From: Nitrospirota bacterium
GTDB taxonomy: Bacteria > Nitrospirota > Nitrospiria > SBBL01 > SBBA01
Assembly (NCBI GenBank): GCA_038059935.1
Contig: JBBTIN010000016.1
Coordinates: 46,943 to 110,942 of the forward strand
Direction: 5' to 3'
DNA length: 64,000 nt
Positions 1 through 53,289 of this stretch are shown here, piece by piece. Below the pieces are notes generated by a model that was not told the DNA's origin, ran no database searches, and saw only the letters and a program-made list of their open reading frames with translations. Made by a program: the position numbers and the translations under genes. Numbering within the stretch: the stretch's first letter is position 1; every line of letters starts with the position of its first letter.

Positions 1-418
1 ATTTGAGCGTATTTGTGATCGTCTTGAAATGGCGCTGCCCGAAAAAATAAGAGAGGCGAGCAGACGACTTCAGACGATCGGGCGGCTTTTGGGTTCTTAC
101 AATCCGGTGGTTCAAATCGCGCACGCAAAGCAAAGGGCGCGTTTCCTGAATAATCGGCTTGATGCTGTCAGAAGTAAAATTGTGTCAATGCGTCAGGGTG
201 TATTGGAGGGGGTGATCAATCGTCTTGATCTTTTAAGTCCGCTTCGTATTTTAGGTCGGGGTTATAGCATTGTGCAGAAAGTAGGCTCTCTCGTCATGAT
301 TCGGGATAGTGCAGAGGTGGCCATTTCTGAAATGATTGTTGTGAAATTGCATCATGGAGCACTCACCTGCGAAGTGGCAGCTCGGCTGACTCCGAAAACG
401 ACTGCTCCGCAGTCTTAA
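1..418 (+). CDS. xseA: Exodeoxyribonuclease VII large subunit, C-terminal part (5' end outside window)
   Basis: The frame is open from the window edge. The C-terminal sequence is XseA-like (LSPLRILGRGYSIV). The last 7 codons plus stop lie inside repeat R1. Confidence 0.65.
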   Translation, partial: FERICDRLEMALPEKIREASRRLQTIGRLLGSYNPVVQIAHAKQRARFLNNRLDAVRSKIVSMRQGVLEGVINRLDLLSPLRILGRGYSIVQKVGSLVMIRDSAEVAISEMIVVKLHHGALTCEVAARLTPKTTAPQS

Positions 419-437
419 CCCCTTCCGTTGGTCGGGG
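398..437 (-). repeat. R1 palindromic element copy 1 (supplies the xseA stop)
   Basis: The reverse complement reads CCCCGACCAACGGAAGGGGTTAAGACTGCGGAGCAGTCGT, about 90 percent identical to 517-552. Confidence 0.85.
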
Positions 438-503: not shown

Positions 504-574
504 CCCCTGTCAGACCGACCAACGGGAGGGCTTAAGACTGCGGAGCAGTCGTCCCCGCAGGCGGCCGTGCCGCC
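504..574 (+). repeat. R1 palindromic element copy 2 (supplies the gspE stop and last ~14 codons)
   Basis: Sequence is CCCCTGTCAGACCGACCAACGGGAGGGCTTAAGACTGCGGAGCAGTCGTCCCCGCAGGCGGCCGTGCCGCC. It contains hairpins GACTGC-GGA-GCAGTC and GGCGGC-CGT-GCCGCC. Confidence 0.85.
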
Positions 575-2286
575 AGTTCGTCGTGGGTGACGCGGAGGAT
601 TTCTTCTGTGGTTGTTTCTCCTGCAATGACTTTCGCAATACCTTCTTCCCGCAGGGTCAGCATGCCTCTGGATGCCGACTTCGCCTTGATCTGACTGGCA
701 TCGGCTTTGGCTAAAACGAGTGATCGGATTTCGTCGGTCATCAACAAGAGTTCGTAGATTCCGATGCGGCCGCGATAGCCGGTATTCATACAAGCGGGGC
801 ATCCCACTGTGCGATAAAATACGGCGACCTTTTGTTTCACGCCCAGTTTTTCCAACTCCTCTGATGTCGGGACGTAGGAAGTTTTACAGGCTTTGCAAAG
901 CAATCTCACCAATCGCTGTGCGACAATGCCCAGCACCGACGAAGAGATCAAGAACGGTTCAACGCCCATATCCAAAAGACGAGTGATGGCTCCAGCCGAA
1001 TCGTTTGTATGCAGCGTAGATAAAACCAAATGCCCTGTGAGGGAGGCATGGATGGCGATTTGTGCCGTATCTACATCTCGAATCTCTCCGACCATAATAA
1101 TATCAGGGTCCTGTCTTAAAATAGACCGGAGACCATTCCCGAATGTCAGATCAATTTTTGGATTTACCTGAATTTGTCCGACGCCCTTTAATTGATATTC
1201 GATTGGGTCTTCAATGGTGATTACATTTTTATCAGTCGAGTTTATCTTTTGAAGTGCGGCGTAGAGCGTGGTCGTTTTTCCGCTTCCCGTTGGTCCGGTC
1301 GCCAGAAAAATACCATGTGTTCGTTCGATAATGCTGGAAAGCGCGTCAAGCGATTCTTTTGAAAGGCCGATTTGAGTCAGTGTGATTAAAAGCGACGTTT
1401 TATCGAGCAAACGAAGCACCATTCGTTCTCCATGAACGATCGGAACGCTGGAGACACGAATATCAATTTCTCGTCCACCCATTCGGGTACTGATGCGGCC
1501 GTCTTGTGGCAACCGCTTTTCGGCAATATTCATATCAGCCACAATTTTGATACGCGAGATGAGTGAGGCTTGTAGCCGCTTGGGTACGGTTAGAATTGGA
1601 TAAAGAACCCCGTCAATCCGATACCGCACGGACACCTCTTTTTCGAAAGGCTCGATGTGAATATCCGATGCCCGTTGCTTGGATGCCTCAAAGAGAATCG
1701 AGTTGACCAACCGAATCATGGGGGCTTCGTCGTTGGTATCCAACAAATCTTCCATGTCGGTAAAACGCGGATCGGCAATTTCGGAGGTGCTGCCATCTGA
1801 AAGATCGGAGATTGCCTGTTCGGCGGTGTCGGTCATCTGCTCATAAATATTATGGATGCGGTTTAGGATCACCTTGGAAGGAGCTGCAATCACAGAAATG
1901 GGCGACTTTAGAAAAAGACGCAGATCGTCAATGGCCGTTTGATTGAGTGGATCAGAAGTAATCACCTGAACGGATTTTCCAACGCGCTGAAATGGAAGAA
2001 TCAGATGTTTCTTGGCAAAGGCAATTGGAACCGATTGCGTGAGTGCGGTATCTATTTCGCTGACGTTAATCGTCGGGGTATAGGGCAAGTTCCATTGCAT
2101 TGCAAGGGATTCAATCACGGCCTCTTCAGAGAGATATTTGAGGCGGACCATGATCTCCCCAATCCGTTCTTTTGCCCCAGAAGTAGGCGTCGTTGCCTTT
2201 CCATTTTGAAGGGCAAGCCCCTCATCAAGAAGGGCTTGCTGAAGTCCAAACTTCTCGATAAAAAATTGTCCTATTTTTTTTCGCAT
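532..2286 (-). CDS. gspE: Type II secretion / type IV pilus assembly ATPase GspE family
   Basis: Walker A GPTGSGKTT, a tetracysteine motif (CKACK...GCPACMNTGYRGR) and an N-terminal T2SSE_N-like region are present. Start moved to the ATG at 2286 (MRKKIGQFF) because the longer ORF reads through non-coding repeat sequence. Confidence 0.9.
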   Translation of the reverse strand: MRKKIGQFFIEKFGLQQALLDEGLALQNGKATTPTSGAKERIGEIMVRLKYLSEEAVIESLAMQWNLPYTPTINVSEIDTALTQSVPIAFAKKHLILPFQRVGKSVQVITSDPLNQTAIDDLRLFLKSPISVIAAPSKVILNRIHNIYEQMTDTAEQAISDLSDGSTSEIADPRFTDMEDLLDTNDEAPMIRLVNSILFEASKQRASDIHIEPFEKEVSVRYRIDGVLYPILTVPKRLQASLISRIKIVADMNIAEKRLPQDGRISTRMGGREIDIRVSSVPIVHGERMVLRLLDKTSLLITLTQIGLSKESLDALSSIIERTHGIFLATGPTGSGKTTTLYAALQKINSTDKNVITIEDPIEYQLKGVGQIQVNPKIDLTFGNGLRSILRQDPDIIMVGEIRDVDTAQIAIHASLTGHLVLSTLHTNDSAGAITRLLDMGVEPFLISSSVLGIVAQRLVRLLCKACKTSYVPTSEELEKLGVKQKVAVFYRTVGCPACMNTGYRGRIGIYELLLMTDEIRSLVLAKADASQIKAKSASRGMLTLREEGIAKVIAGETTTEEILRVTHDELAARPPAGTTAPQS

Positions 2287-2370
2287 ACGGAAGAGCCTTG
2301 TGGGTGCGACACATAGGTCGCCCCCTACATTCATTAAATTAAGGGGGACAGGTTTTCCTGTGTAAGACTT

Positions 2371-3928: not shown

Positions 3929-4915
3929 TTATTGTATGTCATAGTTAAATGTCTCTTCTTTATTATTTCGGATTAATTCAACCCGAATATGCCGTTCCCC
4001 TTTCAGACGCTCAAAGACCTCCAAAAAATTCTGGGGATTCCCCACATCAATATTATTAACCCGCTTTAATATATCGCCGTTTTGAAGACCGATTCTCTCG
4101 TAAAGCGAATCCTGTCGAATAGAATAAATGCGAAATCCATCCGGTTTGCCATCGGTAAAATTAGGAACGACCCGTGCCTTCGTCAATAGTTCCGGCAAGT
4201 TTTGCACTGCGTCATCCACCTCCCGCCGATCCATCATCCACCGTCCATTTGATATTTGCCGAATACCCTCGTTATGCGACCGATCCCGATCCCGCGACGA
4301 AGGAGGCGGAATCATTCCGCGTTCGGGTGCGGTTGTCCCTTCCTTGAGTCCTGAAAGTGCCGTCACCAAAATATCGTCTTCCTCTCCCTCTCCGCGTGAG
4401 ATCACCACGCGCGACCGTTGAATTGATTTTAACTTTGCGTCTGGCAGCAAAAAATCTCCGATCCGATAGATATACTGCCTGCGTGTTCGGCCGTCTTCGA
4501 TCACGGCATAGGACTGGGCAGGGCCTTCCGCACTAATAACCGTTCCAATCAGGGTTAAATTCAAAGGAGCCTTTGGTGGCGCAATGATGACCGGAGGCGG
4601 GGGCGGAAGTGGCAACGGAACAATTGGCATCGGCGGCGGCAGGGCAGTGGGAATAAACTTAACGGGAACCGCCTCTGGCGTCGCCGGAGCAAAGATATCC
4701 CCGCTCACAATCGAGCGATAGTTGTGTTTCTCATTGTTGGAGGAAATAAAGCGGGTTTTGTTTTGATCCAAGGGAAATGAGTTTTCCGAAGGCGTTTTGA
4801 GCAGACGTGACGCGACAAAAAAATTGGCAGTATCAGCCAAAAGATAGGCGCCCATCGCAATCAGACCACAATGAATCACCCATGAATAAGACCGAAGTAT
4901 TGCATGGAGTGGCAT
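3929..4915 (-). CDS. gspC: GspC-like type II secretion protein with C-terminal PDZ domain
   Basis: N-terminal TM helix, proline-rich linker, PDZ-like GLQNGDILKRVNNIDV. The gene lies directly upstream of gspD. Confidence 0.6.
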   Translation of the reverse strand: MPLHAILRSYSWVIHCGLIAMGAYLLADTANFFVASRLLKTPSENSFPLDQNKTRFISSNNEKHNYRSIVSGDIFAPATPEAVPVKFIPTALPPPMPIVPLPLPPPPPVIIAPPKAPLNLTLIGTVISAEGPAQSYAVIEDGRTRRQYIYRIGDFLLPDAKLKSIQRSRVVISRGEGEEDDILVTALSGLKEGTTAPERGMIPPPSSRDRDRSHNEGIRQISNGRWMMDRREVDDAVQNLPELLTKARVVPNFTDGKPDGFRIYSIRQDSLYERIGLQNGDILKRVNNIDVGNPQNFLEVFERLKGERHIRVELIRNNKEETFNYDIQ

Positions 4916-4970
4916 GAGTATATTGACCCTTTTGTGAAACTGTCTAGTAAAAAACCTTGTTGAAGGTTGT

Positions 4971-5000
4971 ATTATATTGAGTTTCTAAAAAAGAAGTCAA
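4971..5000 (-). promoter_or_regulatory. Candidate sigma-70 promoter for gspCDE
   Basis: The minus strand reads TTGACT, 18 nt, TATAAT, about 55 nt upstream of the gspC ATG. Confidence 0.35.
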
Positions 5001-5068
5001 CGTGACGGTTTTTAGAGAGGCACCCCACACATAATGACAGCATTCTTTTGCTCTCATTATAAAACGAA

Positions 5069-5368
5069 TTACTTTGGGCTCCCGTTTTCTGGAATTAAAT
5101 GAACAATACTATCCGTGAATCCGTGGTTGCGAATTTCAAATGGGTTTTCCAGATAAGTAATCGTTACCATTTTGATGGCATGATGTTTTGCCAAATTATC
5201 GCAAACGCCGACACAGATTTCACAACCCTTACACCGATCTACAGCGATATAAGCCGAGTTTCGCTTGTTATCAAATAAAATGGTATTCGACTCTGGACAA
5301 AACTGTGTGCAAAGACGACAACTGGTTGAACCACAAATATCAATATCTACATCTGCAACTTCGTACAT
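5069..5368 (-). CDS. 2-oxoacid:ferredoxin oxidoreductase delta subunit (2x[4Fe-4S] ferredoxin)
   Basis: Two Cys clusters, CRLCTQFCPE and CKGCEICVGVCD. Start at ATG 5368 (MYEVADV), preceded by GGAGG. The longer ORF reads through an R3 hairpin. Confidence 0.8.
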   Translation of the reverse strand: MYEVADVDIDICGSTSCRLCTQFCPESNTILFDNKRNSAYIAVDRCKGCEICVGVCDNLAKHHAIKMVTITYLENPFEIRNHGFTDSIVHLIPENGSPK

Positions 5369-5413
5369 GCTTTCCTCCAGAGACTGGGGATTATAAACGG
5401 ATCCCCGACAAAC

Positions 5414-5430
5414 CTCCCCTTTCAGGGGAG
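5414..5430. repeat. R3-type hairpin (CTCCCC-TTTCA-GGGGAG)
   Basis: A perfect 6-bp stem lies in the gap between the gamma and delta subunit genes. Confidence 0.6.
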
Positions 5431-5455
5431 AAAACATTAAATGACCTACTTTAAT

Positions 5456-6181
5456 CTAGCCGACTAATGCAGGTTCTTCCTGACGCGACTCGTTCCAGCC
5501 ATGTTCTATGGCATAATCGTATGCGGCCTTTACAACAGCATAGTTCTTGGCAACCAATTCCGCTTTCTTTGCAAATTTTCTTTCAATCACGTTATCCAAA
5601 GAGGCCGTTCCCCCAGAGACCACAAACCCCTTCCCCAAGAAACGCTCCTTCACCGATTGCTCCATGGATTTCAAATCGGGTATACCAAGAATTCCAACAA
5701 TGGCACCACACATTGCCATATTGGTGGCCAAATCCGTTCCTGCAACGTCCACGGCAAGCTTGGTGGCTGGAACGTAACAGACCTTCGCACCCAGTGATTT
5801 TAATTCGTCTTTCTGATCTTGAATCATGGGGACCGGCGTTTCACTGTTAATAATCACCACACCATTTTTCTTCAATCCCCAGTAAAACGGCATGGTATAA
5901 GATTTACCATGGGTAATGACTTGCGGATGGAATATTACAAGGATATTCGGATAGATGATCTCACCAATCTCATAAATACTGTCTTCGGCAATACGGACAT
6001 AGCTTTCAACCGGCGCCATTCGCTTTTCAGAGCCAAAGAAGGGAACCAGCGTACTTTCGCCCCCGCTGATAATCACACCATTGCTCAAGATATGGGACGC
6101 GGTCACAACCCCCTGTCCACCAATTCCAGCCATTCGAACGTTATACCGCTTTATCTTAACTGCACCATCTGTAACCGCCAT
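5456..6181 (-). CDS. 2-oxoacid:ferredoxin oxidoreductase gamma subunit
   Basis: MAGIGGQGVVTASHIL motif. Start at ATG 6181, preceded by AAGGAGG. Confidence 0.85.
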   Translation of the reverse strand: MAVTDGAVKIKRYNVRMAGIGGQGVVTASHILSNGVIISGGESTLVPFFGSEKRMAPVESYVRIAEDSIYEIGEIIYPNILVIFHPQVITHGKSYTMPFYWGLKKNGVVIINSETPVPMIQDQKDELKSLGAKVCYVPATKLAVDVAGTDLATNMAMCGAIVGILGIPDLKSMEQSVKERFLGKGFVVSGGTASLDNVIERKFAKKAELVAKNYAVVKAAYDYAIEHGWNESRQEEPALVG

Positions 6182-8409: not shown

Positions 8410-8493
8410 CTTTAATTTCCTTTCTGACTCTCCCCATTATCTACTAATGGAGCCAGCCCCGTGTATCTCTAAAACAAACCGTAGGGCGTTCTC

Positions 8494-8544
8494 TTTCAGG
8501 CGGCCAACGAGCCGACTCAACCCCGCTGGAGGCAGCGCCTCCCC
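8494..8544 (+). repeat. R1 element copy 4 (variant)
   Basis: Sequence TTTCAGGCGGCCAACGAGCCGACTCAACCCCGCTGGAGGCAGCGCCTCC. The terminal hairpin GGAGGC-AGC-GCCTCC ends 2 nt from the stop at 8546. Confidence 0.8.
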
Positions 8545-9504: not shown

Positions 9505-10628
9505 TTAACCCAGATTGCGCGATAGGAATAAAAGGGTTAGATTGATGGGTAAGATTCTAATGCGTAGCAATAGAGATAGGAGGGGATGCGGTTTTTTAGC
9601 AAATTCAAGCAAAGTACGAATCACAACGTGAGCGAATATTTTTATTCTTGGATTTTCAATCATGTCCAATTTAACAATTTTACTTTAGACTTTGACTCTT
9701 CAGTCATGACGCGGTACGGCGCCCAAGAAGGTGCTAAAAAAGGCTATAATCCAGTGAAAAAGGGACGGCCTTCACATCATCCGTTGATTGCTTTTATTGG
9801 CGATGTAAAATTAGTGGCGAATATGTGGCTTCTTCGTTCCGATACGTCTTCGGCGAATAACTTTCTCTCTTTTTTAGAGGACACTTTGTCGAAATTGAAG
9901 GGCAAAGTGGTGAGTTTAATTCGTTTGGACAGCGGTTTTTTTCAGTCGAGTATTTTAGATTATCTAGAAGCAAAATCGTTAGAATATGTGGTTGCTGCTA
10001 AGTTTACACACCCGATTCAACGACTGATCGGCGGACAAGGCGTCTGGATTGTGCTAGATCAAGGGATTGAGATTTGTGAACGAGAGTATCAAAGTGCCTT
10101 GTGGTCGAAAGCAAGACGAATGGTCATTGTCCGGCAACAGATTAAAGAGCGGCCGAAAGCGCCTGGTAAACAATTGCGTTTGTTTTCGGACGATGAGATT
10201 CACAAGAACTACCGATATTCTGCCTATGTGACCAATCTGAAATTAGCGCCTGCGGAAGTGTGGCGGATTTATCGAGGTCGCGGGGACGCCGAAAACAGAA
10301 TCAAAGAATTAAAGTACGATTTTGGTTTTGACAGTTTTAATCTGAAAGGTTTTTATGCGACGGAAGCGGCACTGACGTTTGTCATGATTGCGTATAATTT
10401 GATGGCATTATTTCGAATGTTTCTGTTGCAGGAAAAAACACAAAAAACCTTATCCACGCTCCGATACAGAACATTTGCGATTGGGGCTTACTTTCAAAAA
10501 GTAGGGGATACCTTGATCCTGAAAATTGCGCTCACTAAAAAAAGAAGGGCGTGGTTTACTGGTCTTTGGAACGATTCAGACTCTTTCGAATACCCCTTCC
10601 AATTCTCTACTGCGTAATCTGGGTTTAA
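9505..10628 (+). mobile_element. IS element (IS4/IS1380-superfamily-like), probably 5'-deleted
   Basis: Imperfect terminal inverted repeats: TTAACCCAGATTGCGC (9505-9520) versus the reverse complement of 10611-10628, TTAAACCCAGATTACGCA. They enclose a single DDE transposase ORF. Confidence 0.6.
9586..10617 (+). CDS. DDE transposase (IS4/IS1380-like), N-terminally short
   Basis: Motifs LDFDSSV...GAQEGAKKGYNPVKKGRPSHHPL, IRLDSGFF and YRGRGDAENRIKELK. The first Asp lies only ~36 aa from the start, which suggests about 90 aa are missing. Confidence 0.85.
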   Translation: MRFFSKFKQSTNHNVSEYFYSWIFNHVQFNNFTLDFDSSVMTRYGAQEGAKKGYNPVKKGRPSHHPLIAFIGDVKLVANMWLLRSDTSSANNFLSFLEDTLSKLKGKVVSLIRLDSGFFQSSILDYLEAKSLEYVVAAKFTHPIQRLIGGQGVWIVLDQGIEICEREYQSALWSKARRMVIVRQQIKERPKAPGKQLRLFSDDEIHKNYRYSAYVTNLKLAPAEVWRIYRGRGDAENRIKELKYDFGFDSFNLKGFYATEAALTFVMIAYNLMALFRMFLLQEKTQKTLSTLRYRTFAIGAYFQKVGDTLILKIALTKKRRAWFTGLWNDSDSFEYPFQFSTA

Positions 10629-13402: not shown

Positions 13403-13974
13403 GTGTGTAAAAGTTAAAAGAGGGCGGCATATACTTTCGGGTTGAAGAAACCATCAAACCCGGCAGACCGGGAGAAAGGACACGCCACCATAAGATCATG
13501 AATGTGCTGGATCGGTTTCCGAAGCGGCTGCGTGGAGAGGCTGCGGAATTATTGGGAAAGATTCCGTATGCCAGGACCCAGCGGGAATGCGAAGCGATGC
13601 GGGATGGTTTTATAGATCGGTACCGCGGGACCCAGGCGAAGGCCTGTGAAGTGTTAATGCGGGATTGGGAGCGGATGGTGACGTTTTATTTGTTTCCAAA
13701 GGAGCACTGGGTACACATTCGGACGACGAATGTAGTGGAGTCGCCGTTTCATGGGAGTCGGTTGAGGACGAATGCGATAAAGCGATACAAGCGGGTGGAG
13801 AATGCGACGGCGATGATCTGGAAGCTTTTAAAGGTTGCCGAGAAACGATTTCGGACATTGAAGGGGGTTGAGAAGTTAAAAAGTGTTTATGAAGGGAACC
13901 TGTATCGAGACGGAGAAGAAATAACAACGGTTCAATCTGAAAGGATGGCCGCCTGATGAAAAACTTTTACACAC
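13403..13974 (+). mobile_element. Internally deleted IS256-family element retaining both ends
   Basis: GTGTGTAAAAGTT (13403-13415) and its exact reverse complement AACTTTTACACAC (13962-13974) bracket a transposase 3' fragment. Confidence 0.65.
13498..13956 (+). pseudogene. IS256-family (mutator-type) transposase, C-terminal third only
   Basis: Sequence FPKEHWVHIRTTNVVESPFHGSRLRT...ENATAMIWKLLKVAEKRFRTLKG is typical of the IS256 C-terminus. The N-terminal DDE region is absent. Confidence 0.8.
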
Positions 13975-14627: not shown

Positions 14628-15467
14628 TTAACAGGCTCCTTCAATCACATCTTTATCCTGCCTTCCCTCAAACAAGGATCGGTTCCAAAAATGATGCACC
14701 GGCCCAACACCCTTTCCAATCTCCAACCCATACCGAATCGCCTCCGTCATATACCGCTTGGCCAAGAAAACGGCATCCACAAGGTTTTCCCCGTGCGCCA
14801 AATGCGCGGCAATCGCAGACGCATACGTACACCCCGTTCCATGCGTGTGACGCGTGTCAATATACGCCCCAGAAATCACCGTAAAATCGTTTCCGTCAAA
14901 AAGAATATCGGTGCCACGATCTTCCTCTAAGTGCCCTCCCTTGACCAAAACGGCCTTCGGTCCCAATTGAAAAATAATCTTCGCCGCACGTCTCGCATCT
15001 TCAAGTGTCCTAACGGGATGACCCGTCAATTGTTCCGCCTCCATGCAATTGGGCGTAACAAGCCGGGCAATCGGTAGGAGTTCTTTTTTTACAGATACAA
15101 TTGCGTCCGGCTGAAGAAGCAGCTTGCCCGATTTTGAAACCATCACCGGGTCAACAACCAGATTCTTTGCACCGTATTGTCTCAATCGTTTGGCAACACA
15201 TTCGACAATCTCGCGAGAGGAGAGCATCCCGATCTTCACCGCAGCAATATCAAAATCGGAAAACAACAAATCTATTTGTTCTTCAATCAGGGAGATTGGT
15301 AAATCATAAACTGCTGTCATGGTTTGGGTATTCTGCGCGGCCATCGCAGTCATGACGGACAACCCAAAGACGCCATGCGCCGCAAACGTCTTGATGTCGG
15401 CCTGAATGCCCGCCCCACCAGAAGGATCAAATCCCGCAATCGTTAAGACTTGTTTTTGAGAGGCCAT
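14628..15467 (-). CDS. thiD: Hydroxymethylpyrimidine/phosphomethylpyrimidine kinase
   Basis: VLTIAGFDPSGGAGIQADIKT, and THGTGCT near the C-terminus. Confidence 0.9.
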   Translation of the reverse strand: MASQKQVLTIAGFDPSGGAGIQADIKTFAAHGVFGLSVMTAMAAQNTQTMTAVYDLPISLIEEQIDLLFSDFDIAAVKIGMLSSREIVECVAKRLRQYGAKNLVVDPVMVSKSGKLLLQPDAIVSVKKELLPIARLVTPNCMEAEQLTGHPVRTLEDARRAAKIIFQLGPKAVLVKGGHLEEDRGTDILFDGNDFTVISGAYIDTRHTHGTGCTYASAIAAHLAHGENLVDAVFLAKRYMTEAIRYGLEIGKGVGPVHHFWNRSLFEGRQDKDVIEGAC

Positions 15468-15472
15468 CTTTA

Positions 15473-15506
15473 CAACCCCCTACCCCCCTTTGATAAGGGG
15501 GAATTT
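15473..15506 (+). repeat. R3 palindromic element
   Basis: CAACCCCCTACCCCCC-TTTGATA-AGGGGGAATTT in the moaA-thiD gap. Confidence 0.75.
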
Positions 15507-17165: not shown

Positions 17166-17189
17166 CCAAGTGCACATGCACCCATCTTT

Positions 17190-17239
17190 CTCGACCGACC
17201 AACGGGAAGTCTGACTCCTGCTGGAGGCCGGTGCCTCCC
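17190..17239 (+). repeat. R1 element copy 5
   Basis: CTCGACCGACCAACGGGAAGTCTGACTCCTGCTGGAGGCCGGTGCCTCC, with terminal hairpin GGAGGC-CGGT-GCCTCC. Confidence 0.85.
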
Positions 17240-17260
17240 AATCTCTCAGGCAACCGCGCC

Positions 17261-17315
17261 GCCCTGTCAGACCGACCAACGGGAGGGCTCACTCCCGCCG
17301 GCGGCCGGTGCCGCC
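17261..17315 (+). repeat. R1 element copy 6 (overlaps the mcp stop codon by 1 nt)
   Basis: GCCCTGTCAGACCGACCAACGGGAGGGCTCACTCCCGCCGGCGGCCGGTGCCGCC, with terminal hairpin GGCGGC-CGGT-GCCGCC. Confidence 0.85.
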
Positions 17316-25620: not shown

Positions 25621-25675
25621 TTGTTTTCAGGCGCCACAACGTGGCGACTCATCACGCCAGGGGGGCTACCCCCCC
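25621..25675 (+). repeat. R1 element copy 7 (variant; overlaps the ribH stop and last 7 codons)
   Basis: TTGTTTTCAGGCGCCACAACGTGGCGACTCATCACGCCAGGGGGGCTACCCCCCC, with hairpins CGCCAC-AAC-GTGGCG and GGGGGG-CTA-CCCCCC. Confidence 0.8.
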
Positions 25676-27405: not shown

Positions 27406-27435
27406 AATATATAAGGATGCATGACGGGTTGTCAA
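27406..27435 (-). promoter_or_regulatory. Candidate sigma-70 promoter for ribBA-ribH-nusB
   Basis: The minus strand reads TTGACA, 18 nt, TATATT, ending ~25 nt upstream of ATG 27381. Confidence 0.35.
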
Positions 27436-27436
27436 A

Positions 27437-27492
27437 CCCCCGCCGCCGGGCGGGAGCGGATGGGACAACTTCCCGTTGGTCGTTGTAAAACC
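27437..27492 (-). repeat. R1 element copy 8
   Basis: The reverse complement reads TGGTTTTACAACGACCAACGGGAAGTTGTCCCATCCGCTCCCGCCCGGCGGCGGGGG, with terminal hairpin CCCGCC-CGGC-GGCGGG. Confidence 0.8.
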
Positions 27493-27526
27493 ACGCCATT
27501 TTGCGCCCGCAAACGGGCGATGCCCC

Positions 27527-29203
27527 TTACGACATGCGACGAATCGTCGTCAGATCCAGCGAGAAAAGATCGCGGATATCGGAAAGTTGCAACGCCATCA
27601 TTGCAAGACGATCCAGCCCCAATCCCCATGCAATCACCGGCACATGGACGCCAAGCGGCTCGGTCACTTCGGGACGAAAAAGCCCCGCACCGCCTAACTC
27701 CATCCAACCCAACGTCGGATGCTTCACATGCATCTCCACCGAAGGCTCCGTAAAAGGAAAATAGGCCGGCAGGAATTTAACCTCTTTCGCTTTCGCAATC
27801 TCCTTTGCGAAAAGCGTGAGGAGTCCTAACAAAGTTCTAAAGTGAACATCCTCTCCGAGAACAATCCCTTCCACTTGAAAGAAATCGGGCGCATGGGTTG
27901 CGTCTACCGCGTCATAACGAAAACAGCGGGCAATCGAAAAATATTTTCCGGGAATACTTGGTAATGCCGCCAATGTCCGGGCGGAAATCGCCGTCCCTTG
28001 ACTTCTTAGAATCAAACGGCGCGTCCGTTGTGAATCAAACTGATACCCCCACCCTCCTGCGGGGGCAGCGTGCCCTGCGGGGGCAGCGTGCCCTGCGGAG
28101 GGGGGCGGAACGACTGCTTCGCAGGCTATCCCCGCCGCTCCCGTTGGTTGCGGTGAAATAACAGATGTCGTTTTGTTGGATTGAACGCCTGTTTCGTGTG
28201 CCGCCGCAACACGACTGACAAGCGCCTCTGGAATGGTTTCGTCATACAAAGGCCCTTTCACGAAATAGACATCATGAATCTCCCGCGCTGGATGAAACTG
28301 CGGCATATACAGCGCATCCATATTCCAAAACTCCGACTCAATAATAGGCCCGTCCATCTCCGAAAACCCCATGGCAACAAGCTTTTCACGCACCGTACCG
28401 AGAAACGCCTGATACGGATGACGCCGCCCAAAGGTCATTCGAGAGGGCGGAAGATCAATGTTGTATTTACGAAACCGCTTGCCGCGCCAACTCCCATCCT
28501 TCAGCATCTCCGAGGTTAGAAGACTAATTTCGTCGGATGGATCAGAAGCCGCCATGGCCTCATAAACAGGCCGAAATCGTTCTGTTGGAATAAAGCTTCT
28601 AAGAACGCGTTCATCCACGCGAAAAATCCCTTTTGATTTTCCACGTTTGCGATGATAGGACAAAACAATCTCCCGATCCGCAGGTGAGAGCGCACAAAGC
28701 GCGATCTCCTGATGGGCTTGATCCAGAAAATCAATCGCGCATTGAAGCTGGAAGAATTCGGTTAATTTTGATGGGTCTATGCGTTCAACAATGCCACCCG
28801 AAATAAGATGCAACGCGCCGCTTTTTTTTAACGCGCCAATCGCGGAACTTCTCTCTTCCGGCTCCAATGCCAATCCCAAGTCAGAAAGCAAAATGGGGCC
28901 GCGCCGTGCCGACTCGTCCGCAATTTGCAGAAACGGATTTTTCTCTGTTGCGTAGATCTTCCCAAGCGCCGTTAGCGAAACCCATTCTTCTTTTGTTTCA
29001 GTTGCAATCGCAAGAATATTTTTTTTCTGGAGCCATTCAACCGCCATTGAAAGTTGTGAGGATAGTAATGTGGGATCGCCTTCTAATAATGTTTGTTCAG
29101 ATAAAGCGATTTGTGCTTTGAAGCGGGCTAATATTTTTCGCTCCAGTGGATGAAGCGATTCCGCCAATTTTAATATTTCTTCATCAGATGTATTGTTCAT
29201 CAC
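27527..29203 (-). CDS. pheS: Phenylalanine--tRNA ligase alpha subunit, archaeal/eukaryal-length type
   Basis: 558 aa, versus ~340 aa for the bacterial type. Motifs FWNMDALYMPQFHPARE, GWGYQF, YFPFTEPSVE and AWGLGLDRLAM. The start could be GTG 29203 or ATG 29200. Confidence 0.85.
   Translation of the reverse strand: MMNNTSDEEILKLAESLHPLERKILARFKAQIALSEQTLLEGDPTLLSSQLSMAVEWLQKKNILAIATETKEEWVSLTALGKIYATEKNPFLQIADESARRGPILLSDLGLALEPEERSSAIGALKKSGALHLISGGIVERIDPSKLTEFFQLQCAIDFLDQAHQEIALCALSPADREIVLSYHRKRGKSKGIFRVDERVLRSFIPTERFRPVYEAMAASDPSDEISLLTSEMLKDGSWRGKRFRKYNIDLPPSRMTFGRRHPYQAFLGTVREKLVAMGFSEMDGPIIESEFWNMDALYMPQFHPAREIHDVYFVKGPLYDETIPEALVSRVAAAHETGVQSNKTTSVISPQPTGAAGIACEAVVPPPSAGHAAPAGHAAPAGGWGYQFDSQRTRRLILRSQGTAISARTLAALPSIPGKYFSIARCFRYDAVDATHAPDFFQVEGIVLGEDVHFRTLLGLLTLFAKEIAKAKEVKFLPAYFPFTEPSVEMHVKHPTLGWMELGGAGLFRPEVTEPLGVHVPVIAWGLGLDRLAMMALQLSDIRDLFSLDLTTIRRMS
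28047..28160 (-). repeat. R1 element copy 9, in frame inside pheS, with 18-bp tandem duplication
   Basis: The minus strand reads CACCGCAACCAACGGGAGCGGCGGGGATAGCCTGCGAAGCAGTCGTTCCGCCCCCCTCCGCAGGGCACGCTGCCCCCGCAGGGCACGCTGCCCCCGCAGG. CTGCGAAGCAGTCGT is 14/15 identical to copy 2. The 18-bp unit at 28057-28074 is repeated at 28075-28092. Confidence 0.7.
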
Positions 29204-35587: not shown

Positions 35588-35658
35588 GGCTACGTCAAAG
35601 TCCGAATGGATGGAACATCTTTACAACACCCCCCTCTCCCCCTTTGCTAGGGGGGAAT
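35588..35658 (+). repeat. ~70-bp repeat (40-nt leader plus R3 palindrome), copy A
   Basis: GGCTACGTCAAAGTCCGAATGGATGGAACATCTTTACAACACCCCCCTCTCCCCCTTTGCTAGGGGGGAAT, about 90 percent identical to 40961-41031. Confidence 0.85.
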
Positions 35659-35667
35659 ACAGATCGG

Positions 35668-35702
35668 GATTCCCCCTTAATAAAGGGGGCTAGGGGGGTG
35701 TG
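35668..35702 (-). repeat. R3 palindromic element (inverted), forming a nested palindrome with 35625-35658
   Basis: GATTCCCCC-TTAATAA-AGGGGGCTAGGGGGGTGTG. Confidence 0.75.
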
Positions 35703-35809
35703 AAAATGTCGGACGGATATGAAATTCGTTTTACATCTGCCGTGTTTTATAAGTCCATTTTTATTGGTCATCCCGACGAAGGCCGGTATCCAGTCTTCTA
35801 TTAACCATC

Positions 35810-40960: not shown

Positions 40961-41031
40961 GGCTACGTCAAAGTCCAATATGGATGGAACATCTTTACAA
41001 CACCCCCCTCCCCCCTTGCTAGGGGGTTGTG
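40961..41031 (+). repeat. ~70-bp repeat (40-nt leader plus R3 palindrome), copy B
   Basis: GGCTACGTCAAAGTCCAATATGGATGGAACATCTTTACAACACCCCCCTCCCCCCTTGCTAGGGGGTTGTG. Confidence 0.85.
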
Positions 41032-50697: not shown

Positions 50698-50844
50698 ACA
50701 ATTATCCTTTATTGATTCTGCCTGTACATCTGGATCCAGAGATGGATTGGAATCCTGGCCCCAAGGCTATTGTCCCATTTTTGAATCGTGATCTTCATGG
50801 CAGGGAGTATACATTTTGTTTATACATCGGGCAATGGACGGATT

Positions 50845-50934
50845 GGTTTTACAGCGACCAACGGAAGCTGTCACACTCGCCCCACCGCGCAGGTGGCACC
50901 CCACCGCGCAGGTGGCACCCCACCGCGCAGGTGG
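50845..50934 (+). repeat. R1 element copy 10 with terminal hairpin amplified three times
   Basis: GGTTTTACAGCGACCAACGGAAGCTGTCACACTCG followed by the 19-bp unit CCCCACCGCGCAGGTGGCA at 50880, 50899 and 50918. The element ends 2 nt from the stop at 50936. Confidence 0.9.
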
Positions 50935-52354: not shown

Positions 52355-52378
52355 AAAATCTCCCCGTGTGTATGGCTT

Positions 52379-52448
52379 GGTTTTACGGCGACCAACGGGA
52401 CAACGTGCCCTGCGAGGAGCTGTCACACCCGCCCCACCGCGCAGGTGG
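52379..52448 (+). repeat. R1 element copy 11
   Basis: GGTTTTACGGCGACCAACGGGACAACGTGCCCTGCGAGGAGCTGTCACACCCGCCCCACCGCGCAGGTGG. It ends 1 nt from the coaE stop codon. Confidence 0.9.
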
Positions 52449-53051
52449 TTACCCGGCGGCCCATAGCATCTGCGAAATCCGATTGACCGCTTCTTGTACC
52501 TCTGGAATCGATTTCCTATTATCAATAATCTCATTTGCGTATGCCCGCTTTGCCTCTAACGACATCTGCAACGCGATACGGGCATTCGCCGCCTCTTCTG
52601 TTAGACCGTCTCGTTCAGAAAGCCGTTTGATCTGTGTCGCCTGATCCACATAAACCAAAACCACTAAATCAACCTTTTTATGTGCACGGGTCTCAATCAA
52701 CAAAGGGGCATCAAAAACAATCACCCGGCGCGGATCCTCCAACCCGACTATGTTTCCTTCCCGTTCTGCCTCAAGAAAGACATGCGGATGCACCATTTTA
52801 TTTAAGGCCGAAAGTTTCTTCGGATCATTAAAAACAATGGCGCCTAATTTTTTCCGGTCAATCTGCCCAGTCCCATCCAAAATCCCAGTTCCAAAAAAAT
52901 TCAAGACCTGATGAAAAACCGCGCCTCTCTGGCTCAATAGATCATGAACAATTTTGTCGGCATCTACAATAAATGCCCCGGCCTCCTTGAACATCTGGGA
53001 GACGGTAGACTTCCCGCTTGCAATCCCGCCTGTTAATCCCACCCAAACCAT
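52449..53051 (-). CDS. coaE: Dephospho-CoA kinase
   Basis: VGLTGGIASGKST P-loop, 200 aa. Confidence 0.9.
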   Translation of the reverse strand: MVWVGLTGGIASGKSTVSQMFKEAGAFIVDADKIVHDLLSQRGAVFHQVLNFFGTGILDGTGQIDRKKLGAIVFNDPKKLSALNKMVHPHVFLEAEREGNIVGLEDPRRVIVFDAPLLIETRAHKKVDLVVLVYVDQATQIKRLSERDGLTEEAANARIALQMSLEAKRAYANEIIDNRKSIPEVQEAVNRISQMLWAAG

Positions 53052-53237
53052 ATTGCGTCCTTAGACTAGAAATAGCGACGGATAAAAATAATATTCATAA
53101 TCACCAATGCCGAAAAAAGAAGGAGCGAAAAGATGAAATAATATTTCATCCGTGAACGCCGCCACTTTTTTATTAGACTCTCTATGGGGAACATAACCAT
53201 TTTCTGCATAGATAATTTAGAATGCCCAATGACATCA

Positions 53238-53289
53238 GTCGTTCCACAGCGACCAGCGGGAGCTGTCAATCTCGGGCACACTAGCCCCC
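53238..53289 (+). repeat. R1 element copy 12 (degenerate, no clear terminal hairpin)
   Basis: GTCGTTCCACAGCGACCAGCGGGAGCTGTCAATCTCGGGCAC, with stem ACAGC/GCTGT. It ends next to the stop at 53290. Confidence 0.6.

Follow-up and report, generated by a model that had tools for sequence, protein, structure and literature searches.

The phenylalanyl-tRNA synthetase alpha gene (pheS) in the 64-kb window, by which we mean the whole stretch of DNA analyzed, contains, in its reading frame, one copy of R1, a family of REP/BIME-like mosaic repeats. We have good confidence in an explanation in which this copy would already have been present in an ancestral pheS, would have been inherited with turnover of its modules, and would be translated as a tolerated passenger loop. 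The features on which these statements rest are collected in Table 1.

Table 1. Coordinates of pheS, its insert, and R1 copies in the window
Feature	Position	Strand	Basis and remarks
pheS, archaeal/eukaryal-type phenylalanyl-tRNA synthetase alpha	27527..29203	(-)	558 aa; ORF, Pfam and PDB matches
R1-derived in-frame insert, ~V340-G383	28055..28186	(-)	phmmer gap, loop length, GC
R1 head within pheS	28126..28164	(-)	Encodes S347-A360; covariance model, PWM, alignment to the 422(-) copy
Hairpin module CTGCGAAGCAGTCGT	28110..28124	(-)	Encodes ~A360-V364; 14/15 identical to 398-412(-) and 538-552(+)
18-bp hairpin module GCAGGGCACGCTGCCCCC, tandem	28056..28098	(-)	TRF score 86; encodes SAGHAAPAGHAAPAG
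Intergenic R1 head, 31 nt past pheS stop	27457..27496	(-)	Covariance model, 33.3 bits
R1 copy, arm of inverted pair	370..435	(-)	Covariance model, 37.7 bits; contains the 422(-) copy
R1 copy, other arm	515..580	(+)	Covariance model, inverted repeat
Degenerate intergenic R1 head, then hairpin GGAGGCAGCGCCTCC	8487..8525	(+)	Covariance model, 27.9 bits
Two tandem intergenic R1 copies	17182..17315	(+)	Heads 17182-17220 and 17259-17297; covariance model, 40.1 and 42.9 bits
Intergenic R1 head	50841..50934	(+)	Covariance model, 41.2 bits; TRF
Intergenic R1 head	52375..52450	(+)	Covariance model, 28.2 bits over 57 nt
Intergenic R1 head, directly past dnaJ-like gene stop	53236..53274	(+)	Covariance model, 43.6 bits

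An R1 copy within pheS

A sequence-only reading of this DNA had assigned the host gene to the archaeal/eukaryal type of PheRS alpha, with a frame open for 558 aa. Both statements held, as the frame is open throughout and the best solved relatives of PheS are eukaryotic cytosolic PheRS alpha chains (8s8b, E=5e-57; human 3l4g, E=1e-52), with weaker matches, at about 1e-32, to bacterial-type PheRS (T. thermophilus 1b70, 2e-32). The only Pfam domains in PheS are tRNA-synt_2d (PF01409; E=6e-81, residues 246-556) and tRNA-synt_2. Class II motifs 1 to 3 are intact on either side of the insert, and the invariant columns of HPAR, RSQGT, and FRYD..DATH..F.QVEG are kept. PheS is 81% identical to the PheS of a Nitrospirota MAG, and a scan of a genome collection returned no relative closer than 68%.

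Some 120 to 130 extra bases lie between the HExG and GWGY motifs of pheS. When PheS was aligned by phmmer to solved PheRS, query residues 340-381 faced 3 residues of the solved chain, an excess of about 39 residues. The loop from H336 to W385, which has 12 residues in 101 of the 114 Nitrospirota orthologues, has 50 in the window's PheS, the longest of the set (+38). Alignment to orthologues, the check that the sequence-only reading had proposed for defining the indel, agrees with its estimate of 38 to 40 added low-complexity residues. The GC content of the insert is 65%, versus 49% in the rest of pheS. Boundaries are approximate, to within a few codons. The interval given earlier, 28047-28160, located the insert correctly but was displaced: the covariance-model match spans 28126-28164 and the extra residues begin near 28186, so that insert and R1 head reach about 25 nt further on the high-coordinate side (5' in the gene), and the roughly 8 nt at 28047-28054 are conserved GW codons already. 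A search of the flanks for direct and inverted repeats found neither a target-site duplication nor a terminal inverted repeat at the insert boundaries.

The insert is collinear with R1, comprising a head, a CTGCGRAGCAGTCGT hairpin, and then a tandemly duplicated 18-bp GC hairpin. Its head is made up of the 5' flank TCTGTTATTTCAC, the stem CCGC/GCGG, and the loop AACCAACGGGA, with the core 13-mer CAACCAACGGGAG at 28138-28150 (-). The CTGCGAAGCAGTCGT module comes after the head in the same order in pheS and in the copies at 398-412(-) and 538-552(+), and modules of this type occupy 3 sites in the window versus 0.07 expected. The 18-bp module has a period of 18 and 2.4 copies that are 100% identical; a relative lies within another R1 at 52396-52413 (3 matches versus 0.03 expected), and the module is also tandemly duplicated, at a different site, in the pheS of another species (L086). 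Translation of the insert gives ISPQPTGAAGIACEAVVPPPSAGHAAPAGHAAPAGG, followed by GWGYQF. Core, 14/15 module, tandem units, and the translation before GWGYQF are all present as first described. Peptides from the insert region would include VISPQPTGAAGIACE and AVVPPPSAGHAAPAGHAAPAGGW, and the predicted tryptic peptide across the insert has about 49 residues.

Homology between the insert and R1 was assessed with a PWM and a covariance model, both trained without the pheS copy. The PWM gave this copy 24.4 bits, compared with 11.2 for the next non-member in the window and at most 17.4 at any of 2.08 M null positions. With the covariance model it scored 20.6 bits (E=1.4e-4), and the best match in 1.06 Mb of other Nitrospirota DNA scored 16.5 bits. 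Local alignment of the insert to the R1 copy at 422(-), its best place in the window, extended over about 60 nt (head, spacer, and CTGCGRAGCAGTCGT hairpin) and scored 48 versus 14.9 +/- 2.1 for shuffles (z=15.9). All three methods support the claim that R1 lies in frame inside pheS, which the sequence-only reading had staked on a statistical alignment of this kind.

R1 heads occur at 10 sites in the 64 kb, and the core pattern occurs at 12 sites with at most 2 mismatches, versus 1.3 expected. The element has a head of about 39 nt (TTTYCAC-stem-GACCAACGGGA-stem), at one end only, and then at least one interchangeable short GC-rich hairpin module. GACCAACGGGA is the conserved 11-nt loop of the head, and the stem varies between copies with its complementarity kept. 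For the 5-bp head stem, support consists of pair counts for a structure that we specified: 73% of cells were paired versus 55 +/- 4.5% in shuffles, and double-sided changes numbered 10 versus 4.5 +/- 1.5, values that 0 of 500 shuffles reached in either case. Slid controls gave at most 52% pairing. RNAalifold, applied to 12 R1 heads, predicted no consensus structure. R1 stems measured 5-6 bp and loops 3-5 nt in a hairpin scan, and 19 of the 44 GC-rich hairpins in the 64 kb fall within the non-coding 9.4% of the window.

Every R1 copy other than the one inside pheS overlaps a stop codon or lies within a few tens of nucleotides after one. The arms of the inverted pair (inverted repeat I1) are 66 nt long and 83% complementary; one overlaps the last 16 codons and stop of an xseA-like ORF, 29..418(+), and the other the last 15 codons and stop of a T2SSE ATPase ORF, 532..2334(-), and the C-terminal tails and TAA stops of these two convergent genes come from the R1 arms. 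Modules differ from copy to copy. Hairpin CCCGCCGCCGGGCGGG (27439-27454) follows the head downstream of pheS, and a GGMGGCCGGTGCCKCC hairpin follows each head of the tandem pair, which adjoins the stop of an MCP gene. At 50841..50934 the 19-bp hairpin CCCCACCGCGCAGGTGGCA follows the head in 2.9 tandem copies, and at 52375..52450 a GGGACAACGTGCCCTGCG hairpin module interrupts the head loop and CCCCACCGCGCAGGTGG comes after. Rfam 15 had no match over the window at gathering thresholds and, at E<=1 over two R1-containing stretches, none to any R1 copy; the sole sub-threshold match in those stretches, to CyaR/RyeE (E=0.33, 27771-27817), overlaps no R1 copy. Derivation of R1 from pheS was rejected, given that the window has intergenic heads at 9 further sites and that two other genomes have them too.

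Proposed history of the insertion and putative mobility of R1

Three other Troglogloeales species share with the window an R1 head in pheS, placed on the same codons and read in the same frame; the hairpin modules behind it are different ones. The PheS proteins of the four species that share this position are 67-83% identical, and the colonization of pheS is not a private, recent one. Codon alignment places CGACCAACGGAA (L001), CAACCAACGG (L003), and a truncated CAGACCGACC (L004) at the same codons, each after a homologous xGxxSxxTxS stretch. The covariance model matched L001 pheS at E=1e-6 and L003 pheS at E=0.08, the latter match (13.5 bits) being within the null range if taken alone. Hairpin modules after the pheS heads match R1 modules of their own genome, as with CGGCCGGAACGCCGGCTG in L003 pheS, which is also present at L003 7005(-). 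Intergenic R1 copies were found at the L001 and L003 loci as well, and none was seen in about 20 kb of L004; a similar insert in genomes free of R1, named by the sequence-only reading as the finding that would speak against it, is not what the L001 and L003 loci show. When metagenomes were searched for ATTTCACCGCRACCAACGGRA, a pattern across the junction of pheS and R1, the 5 matches were all unrelated coding sequences.

The pheS of a fifth species, P0007 (L085), contains a complete R1 (head and GGAGGCCGTGCCTCC; E=0.0016) on the opposite strand, a few codons away. The loop is canonical in P0011, a close relative of P0007, and P0007, P0009, and P0011 form a clade with 100% bootstrap support. 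Among intact orthologues the loop measures 12, 16, 18, 20, 25, 32, 34, 48, or 50 residues, in frame in every case. In a neighbor-joining tree, the R1-bearing pheS lineages were not monophyletic: the window and P0001 grouped with P0013 and P0014 in 0 of 200 bootstraps, and a canonical-loop clade nested between them with 72% support. A single ancestral insertion would therefore need clean loss, recombination, or a wrong tree.

We propose that an ancestor shared by several Troglogloeales lineages received one R1 copy in the DNA encoding the Gly-rich PheRS alpha loop (HExGG..GS.GWGY) that lies between class II motifs 1 and 2. This copy would have been inherited since, its hairpin modules being swapped, deleted or, in the window's pheS, duplicated. 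The 100% identical 18-bp units have the look of a recent slippage event. At least one further lineage would have undergone a separate invasion of this loop, by an R1 in the opposite orientation, which would make the loop a permissive site for R1-type elements and possibly a preferred one.

For a mobilizing enzyme, ORFs of at least 80 aa were chosen by greedy non-overlapping selection (n=61), and in the 60 that were scanned there was no match to Y1_Tnp (PF01797)/RAYT at E<=1e-5 (E<=1e-3 for pheS). The only transposase-type ORFs among those scanned are DDE_Tnp_1 (9586-10617) and a Mutator-family fragment (13498-13956). With no RAYT-type transposase among these ORFs, it is solely the dispersed, polymorphic distribution of R1 that suggests mobility. 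A stronger proposal, which we regard as unlikely, is that R1 is active and site-selective rather than a set of tolerated relics, the head serving as the recognition hairpin for a candidate single-stranded DNA transposase (RAYT/IS200-like) or an RNA-binding protein, and that it repeatedly targets the G-rich DNA of the pheS GG..GS.GWG loop in either orientation and excises cleanly. Clean excision would explain the canonical-loop clade nested among R1-bearing lineages. Were this true, an essential aminoacyl-tRNA synthetase would have one of its loops reversibly remodeled by a REP-like element, in a lineage with free-living chemolithoautotrophs among its members.

Fate of the insert and competing explanations

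If the insert is an inherited R1 copy, as we prefer, it would be transcribed and translated with pheS to give a Pro/Ala/Gly-rich, probably disordered loop of about 39 residues that the enzyme tolerates, a passenger and not a functional domain. Translation as such a loop is most likely because the reading frame is kept in all lineage versions; the loop is presumably neutral and would be exposed at the surface. Two AlphaFold2 runs (36 and 114 sequences; mean pLDDT 59.6 and 67.7) gave a confident N-terminal domain and a catalytic core with pLDDT 50-63. Residues 342-385, which follow a helix at 326-338, were predicted as coil (pLDDT 30-36). The catalytic domain was poor in both models.

The insert might instead have been co-opted and retained. 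Its protein loop might have a role, for example by touching tRNA, the beta subunit, or some partner; alternatively, its mRNA or DNA structure might modulate the expression of pheS. In favor of this, the insert has stayed at a single site through speciation, its head loop is conserved between genomes with PheS identities of only 67%, the RNA of the insert forms a strong structure (-63.4 kcal/mol, z=-2.3), and a second R1 copy lies just past the pheS stop. However, the part of the peptide that is shared, the N-terminal one, is about 11/18 identical between the window and P0001, compared with 83% for the whole protein, and the distal part is entirely replaced between lineages. The insert is also reduced to remnants or missing in close relatives, its composition is typical for a translated GC palindrome, and it is predicted as coil with a pLDDT of about 30. 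Given these points, co-option seems doubtful to us.

Far less probable is that the insert is absent from the mature enzyme, whether as an intron, as an intein, or through translational bypassing. The sequence-only reading had allowed for removal by some unknown means, but the versions of the insert differ by multiples of three and all are open. Eight lineage versions of differing length are in frame without stops, which is expected only if the ribosome reads the segment. Inteins have about 130 aa or more; the insert, at about 39 aa, is far below that size and lacks the nucleophile and His-Asn junction residues. Pfam shows aaRS domains alone, with no intein domain, and there was no Rfam match to an intron or other RNA family even at E<=1. 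We weigh these observations above the strong structure of the insert RNA and the oddity of 39 extra residues in the core of an aaRS.

An assembly artefact, in which intergenic R1 reads were mis-joined into pheS during metagenome assembly, is equally improbable. A MAG is the probable source of the window, chimeras classically arise at repeats, and the exact PheS protein has no match elsewhere on record. Nevertheless, the reading frame is unbroken to either side of the insert, the insert differs from every other R1 copy in the window, and independently assembled genomes have homologous inserts with the head at the same position, the L001 pheS sequence being identical in two assemblies (ENA and Logan). 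Chance resemblance, by which an ordinary low-complexity or slippage expansion of the Gly-rich loop would look like R1 by coincidence, is effectively refuted: although the 18-bp unit is tandemly duplicated, GC-rich palindromes easily look alike, and RNAalifold gave no head structure, the three homology methods put the pheS copy far above their nulls, its head, spacer, and hairpin module are collinear with the copies at 422 and 516, and the same head sits on the same codons in three other species.

Relation to known palindromic elements

The pheS insert is well supported as a new example of a known phenomenon, the in-frame insertion of palindromic repeats. To call R1 in an aminoacyl-tRNA synthetase gene unusual, as had been done from the sequence, was an overstatement, since intragenic REPs (glyS, ileS) and Rickettsia RPEs have been published. 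R1 has the properties of REP/BIME elements in the broad sense, as its copies are short GC-rich imperfect palindromes, dispersed, and mainly intergenic just past ORFs.

REPs are GC-rich palindromes situated mostly just 3' of ORFs, to which they sometimes give stop codons (Di Nocera et al. 2013; PMC3733652). Occasionally they lie whole within genes for known proteins, where dimers or groups encode 20-30 P/A/G-rich residues, and the intragenic targets in the supplement include glycyl- and isoleucyl-tRNA synthetase genes (PMC3733652); pheS is not among the REP targets found in that supplement. The GTAG and CGTC REPs have a tetranucleotide tag at one palindrome end, and CGTC stems are 8-9 bp with loops of 4-5 nt (PMC3733652). 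R1 resembles these in being short GC-rich palindromes past ORFs that sometimes supply stops and are occasionally intragenic. It differs in having a conserved, non-palindromic-looking head ahead of interchangeable hairpins and in its host, a Nitrospirota order absent from the main text of PMC3733652. We rejected R1 as a member of the GTAG or CGTC superfamily on its lack of a consistent tag, CGTC following the hairpin only in the 516 copy (515..580), and on its stems of 5-6 bp, compared with 8-9 bp in CGTC REPs.

RPEs lie in frame in unrelated housekeeping genes and are translated and compatible with fold and function (Ogata et al. 2000; PMC10969869, PMC3184786). R1 is likewise a dispersed palindromic repeat set in frame into a housekeeping gene, a likeness in behavior alone. 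RPEs are about 100-150 bp long, have a conserved peptide per family, and reside in reduced obligate intracellular genomes, whereas R1 inserts are modular and their peptide is not conserved past the head. The Troglogloeales include free-living Mn-oxidizing chemolithoautotrophs (PMC9040806); the Mn-oxidizing Candidatus Manganitrophus belongs to this order.

In-frame fusions with ORFs, internal or at the 3' end, are also described for BOX, RUP, SPRITE, ERIC, and MITE elements (PMC3184786, PMC10969869). R1 behaves similarly, internally in pheS and at the 3' ends of the xseA-like and T2SSE genes. Most of those elements, however, resemble MITEs in having terminal inverted repeats and target-site duplications, and the pheS insert is bordered by neither. 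R1 was rejected as a MITE because no direct or inverted repeats flank the insert and the head is at one end only.

BIMEs were reportedly described by Gilson et al. and REPINs by Bertels and Rainey in 2011. In Enterobacteria and Pseudomonas, they are extragenic by definition and tied to RAYT transposases. Like them, R1 is a mosaic assembled from a small set of short motifs whose order and orientation vary, and its inverted doublet, 370-435/515-580, resembles a REPIN; unlike them, it is also intragenic, with no RAYT among the 60 of 61 selected window ORFs that were scanned.

In-frame insertion of palindromic repeats into core genes, so far familiar chiefly from Rickettsia and a small number of REP-rich Proteobacteria, is now extended to the Nitrospirota order Troglogloeales. 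The pheS locus offers a natural time series in which one insertion is traceable through species with PheS identities of 67-83%, the head being kept and the modules swapped, deleted, or duplicated, and to which a second, opposite-orientation insertion in the same loop adds. Such a series is useful for the study of element spread and decay, of loop tolerance, and of the R1 head as a possible protein recognition site. For annotation and structure prediction, repeat-derived, GC-rich inserts and C-terminal tails rich in Pro, Ala, and Gly are to be expected in these genomes.

The insert in pheS and its likeness to R1

The gene that hosts the insert, pheS, encodes the alpha subunit of an archaeal/eukaryal-type phenylalanyl-tRNA synthetase (PheRS). 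Residues 246-556 match Pfam tRNA-synt_2d (E=6e-81), and among solved structures the best matches are to eukaryotic cytosolic PheRS alpha chains (8s8b, E=5e-57; human 3l4g, E=1e-52), against about 1e-32 for solved bacterial-type PheRS alpha. The nearest database proteins come from Nitrospirota MAGs, and the genomes nearest to the window in the species collection carry the label Candidatus Troglogloeales.

A sequence-only reading had proposed that R1, a dispersed REP/BIME-like repeat, lies in frame inside this gene. The parts that it listed are all there: the R1 core CAACCAACGGGAG at 28138-28150 (-), the hairpin module CTGCGAAGCAGTCGT at 28110-28124 (-), and an 18-bp tandem unit at 28056-28098 (2.4 copies, 100% identity), which together translate as ...ISPQPTGAAGIACEAVVPPPSAGHAAPAGHAAPAGG followed by GWGYQF. 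The location in pheS held, and the start was moved about 25 nt further toward the 5' end of the gene. Using phmmer against solved structures, we found the PheS match split into two segments (query 228-339 on chain 191-303 and query 382-549 on chain 307-479), leaving 42 query residues opposite 3 residues of the chain. Between the invariant His336 and the invariant Trp385 there are 12 residues in 101 of 114 Nitrospirota PheS proteins and 50, the longest, in the window. Thus, the insert adds 38 to 39 residues. It sits in the Gly-rich loop, after the HExGG part and before GS.GWGY, with class II motifs 1 and 2 on either side, and has a GC content of 65%, compared with 49% in the rest of pheS and 47% in the window.

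Coordinates of the insert, its host gene and related R1 features in the window
Feature	Position	Strand	Remarks
Insert in pheS	about 28055-28186	minus	extra residues vs orthologues
pheS ORF	27527..29203	minus	single ORF, 558 aa
xseA-like ORF	29..418	+	runs into R1; ends ...CEVAARLTPKTTAPQS, then stop
T2SSE (type II/IV secretion) ATPase ORF	532..2334	-	runs into R1; ends ...HDELAARPPAGTTAPQS, then stop
19-bp hairpin unit CCCCACCGCGCAGGTGGCA	50880-50934		after one R1 head; 2.9 tandem copies

The nucleotide similarity of the insert to other R1 copies, claimed in the same reading, is statistically supported, because tests with the pheS segment left out of training exceeded their nulls and the module order is shared. 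A 25-nt position weight matrix from 12 other copies gave the pheS site 24.4 bits, with the next nonmember in the window at 11.2 and a maximum of 17.4 among 2,077,448 positions in other Nitrospirota loci. A covariance model was built from an alignment of 12 R1 copies (8 from the window, 1 from L001 and 3 from L003, two loci of relatives). It scored 28126-28164 (-) at 20.6 bits (E=1.4e-4, 200-kb search), with a best null score of 16.5 bits in 1.06 Mb of non-Troglogloeales loci. In local alignment, the top-scoring place in the entire window for the insert was the R1 copy at 422(-), matched over ~60 nt (ATCTGTTA-TTT-CACCGCAACCAACGGGAG...AGCCTGCGAAGCAGTCGTT) with a score of 48 against 14.9 +/- 2.1 in 1000 dinucleotide shuffles (maximum, 25). 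The hairpin module CTGCGAAGCAGTCGT occurs at 3 sites versus 0.07 expected. For the 18-mer of the tandem unit, the count is 3 versus 0.03, with the third site inside another R1 copy. The order of head, spacer, hairpin A, spacer and hairpin B/C is the same in the insert and the 422/516 copies.

Translation or removal of the insert

Frame-preserving lengths would be expected if ribosomes read through the insert and would not be expected with excision or bypass. In nine species, the His-to-GWGY segment measures 156, 102, 150, 81, 108, 66, 54, 60 and 39 nt, each length a multiple of three and each segment open. Pfam found no intein domain in PheS, Rfam had no intron or other RNA family matching the insert region, and the insert comprises only about 39 codons. 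Excision or bypass was rejected on the preserved open frame in nine species and the lack of an intein or intron family. The RNA of the insert folds strongly (-63.4 kcal/mol, z=-2.3).

Natural variation in loop length makes surface exposure of the insert plausible. AlphaFold2 (114 sequences) placed residues 342-385 as coil (pLDDT, 30 to 36) after a helix at 326-338, in a model whose catalytic domain reached an overall pLDDT of only 50 to 63, with the first model worse.

Orthologues and insertion history

In an alignment of 36 PheS relatives, most had the canonical loop, and several members of the Troglogloeales subclade had inserts at the pheS site. We obtained DNA for eight insert-bearing Troglogloeales relatives. 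Three of these species carry an R1 head, preceded by a homologous xGxxSxxTxS stretch, at codon positions and in a frame identical to those of the window. The first, L001 (PheS P0001), reads ...ATT TCA CCG CGA CCA ACG GAA AGC GGT... (covariance model, 26.1 bits, E=1e-6), followed by hairpin CCCCCCGCTGGGGGG. L003 (P0013) reads ...CTT CCA GCT CAA CCA ACG GCC GGA..., followed by CGGCCGGAACGCCGGCTG and GGAGCCGGGAAGGCTCC, the former also being found in an intergenic R1 at L003 7005(-). In L004 (P0014), the head is truncated (...CTT CCA GAC CGA CC|G CCC...). The 5' flank TTTCAC in the window and L001 pheS matches their own copies, and the flank CTTCCAGMY in L003 and L004 pheS is the variant seen in L003 intergenic copies (TTTCCAGAC, CTTCCAGGC). 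Another relative, P0008, retains a recognizable remnant, GVTTP.... Homologous inserts in genomes without R1 had been named as evidence against the R1 reading. Homologous inserts exist, but two of the genomes that carry them also have R1 between genes (at loci L001 and L003), so this evidence against R1 did not emerge. No intergenic R1 was seen in about 20 kb of L004.

The identity of the four heads in position and frame argues for one insertion event behind them. In neighbor-joining trees built without the loop columns, the window grouped with P0001 and P0013 with P0014 (100% bootstrap each), the two pairs joined in 0 of 200 bootstraps, and a canonical-loop clade (100%) joined window plus P0001 and P0008/12/16 in 72% of replicates. 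A single event would require clean loss, allele recombination or neighbor-joining error.

The same loop carries R1 elsewhere in the opposite orientation. In P0007 (locus L085), an insert of 22 residues lies upstream of the position seen in the window by a few codons, and the canonical GSSGWGY is kept after it. On the opposite strand, this insert reads as the R1 head CTGTTTTCACCGCCCCCAACGGGGGCGG and then module GGAGGCCGTGCCTCC, and a covariance-model match of 17.8 bits (E=0.0016) on the minus strand slightly exceeds the top null score. The loop of P0011, closely related to P0007, is canonical (HERGGETGSSGWGY), and P0009, in the same clade (P0007, P0009 and P0011; 100% bootstrap), has different GC hairpins at the same place. 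Judged from sequence, R1 in P0007 would be a second, independent invasion of the Gly-rich loop. In P0004 (locus L086), the window's 18-bp module CCTGCGGGGGCAACGTCC is tandemly duplicated in another PheS loop, in the N-terminal domain ('ATCPAGATSPAGA'). These inserts in P0007, P0009 and P0004 make the Gly-rich loop a recurrent landing or retention site, along with at least one further loop.

The L086 codons for 'DKATCPAGATSPAGAND' carry the duplicated hairpin module, and the Gly-rich loop of P0004 is canonical. JGI metagenome 3300045502 holds three co-occurring Troglogloeales populations (L004, L085 and L088) with three pheS-loop states: a truncated R1 head, a complete opposite-orientation R1 and a short remnant.

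R1 beyond pheS

The R1 core pattern has 12 sites with at most two mismatches in the window, versus 1.3 expected, and Rfam contains no family matching R1. In the alignment of 12 copies described above, the R1 head of ~39 nt has a T-rich 5' flank (TTTYCAC), a stem of 4 to 5 bp and an almost invariant 11-nt loop, GACCAACGGGA. The stem sequence varies while complementarity is kept (ACAGC/GCTGT, AGACC/GGTCT, ACCCC/GGGGT and, in pheS, CCGC/GCGG). For a structure that we specified, pairing held in 73% of cells versus 55 +/- 4.5% in shuffles, and double-sided changes numbered 10 versus 4.5 +/- 1.5 (each reached in 0 of 500 shuffles); slid controls paired at most 52%. RNAalifold did not predict the stem, so we take it as suggestive.

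Interchangeable short, GC-rich hairpin modules follow the heads (GACTGCGGAGCAGTC, GGMGGCCGGTGCCKCC, CCACCGCGCAGGTGG, GGGCACGCTGCCC). Modules are multiplied by tandem duplication between genes as well: the 19-bp unit CCCCACCGCGCAGGTGGCA is an example, with a single copy after the next head, at a distance of 1.5 kb (52432-52450). In the head at 52375-52431, a GGGACAACGTGCCCTGCG hairpin related to the pheS 18-bp unit splits the conserved loop, from which it seems that modules can insert independently.

Apart from the pheS copy, all R1 copies lie no more than a few tens of nucleotides past stop codons or overlap them, and 19 of 44 GC-rich hairpins fall within the noncoding 9.4% of the window. An inverted pair (370-435/515-580; 66-nt arms, 83% complementary) separates two convergent genes, xseA-like and T2SSE. 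Their Pfam profiles stop 14 and 19 residues, respectively, before the stop codon, both TAA stops are supplied by the R1 segment CTTAAG, and both R1-encoded tails end in TTAPQS. The lumazine synthase RibH ends in GGVAPLA, encoded by GC hairpin GGGGGGCTACCCCCC, which lies 8 nt ahead of the stop (25652-25674); this tail is probably repeat derived. All three 3' ends resemble the 3'-end fusions described for REPs (PMC3733652). In L003, an inverted head pair at 5304-5448 occupies the 3' part of a GidA/TrmFO-like call (492 aa; gene 4082-5560) and is probably a further C-terminal fusion. Between pheS and ribBA, a near-consensus sigma-70-like promoter at 27406-27435 (-) (TTGACA, 18 nt, TATATT; 11/12) abuts an R1 copy and hairpin; R1 may there have a terminator-like hairpin on one side and the ribBA promoter on the other.

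We infer that R1 is mobile because its copies are dispersed, polymorphic and variable in orientation. The pheS insert is flanked by neither a target-site duplication nor a terminal inverted repeat, and no Y1/RAYT transposase was present among 60 of the 61 window ORFs of at least 80 aa (greedy nonoverlapping selection). A DDE (IS4-like) transposase ORF at 9586-10617 (+), N-terminally truncated by comparison with its Pfam profile, and a Mutator-family fragment at 13498-13956 (+) flank an Nqo3-type molybdopterin oxidoreductase gene (NADH-quinone oxidoreductase subunit 3), near a 47-nt direct repeat (14019-14065/14579-14625, 91% identical). A second dispersed repeat unrelated to R1, CATCTTTACAACMCCCCCYCCCCCCTTKGMTARGGGGG, forms a C-rich/G-rich hairpin in both orientations (15465-15504, 35606-35655, 35669-35708 and 40980-41026).

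In-frame insertions of small palindromic repeats in protein genes are established for Rickettsia RPEs (PMC10969869, PMC3184786), and GTAG- and CGTC-tagged REPs insert in frame in several bacteria (PMC3733652). The intragenic list in the supplement of PMC3733652 includes glycyl-tRNA synthetase beta (X. oryzae, E. litoralis) and isoleucyl-tRNA synthetase (E. litoralis). R1 behaves alike; however, it has no tags and is modular and therefore does not belong to those sequence superfamilies. Nothing published on repeats of this kind in Troglogloeales or Manganitrophus turned up in our literature search. Taken together, the observation of R1 in pheS is confirmed, and its earlier interpretation is supported apart from the interval and further corrections. 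Beyond that original finding, the insert appears to be inherited across species with module turnover, the head has a conserved loop, and the same PheS loop would have received a second insertion in the opposite orientation.
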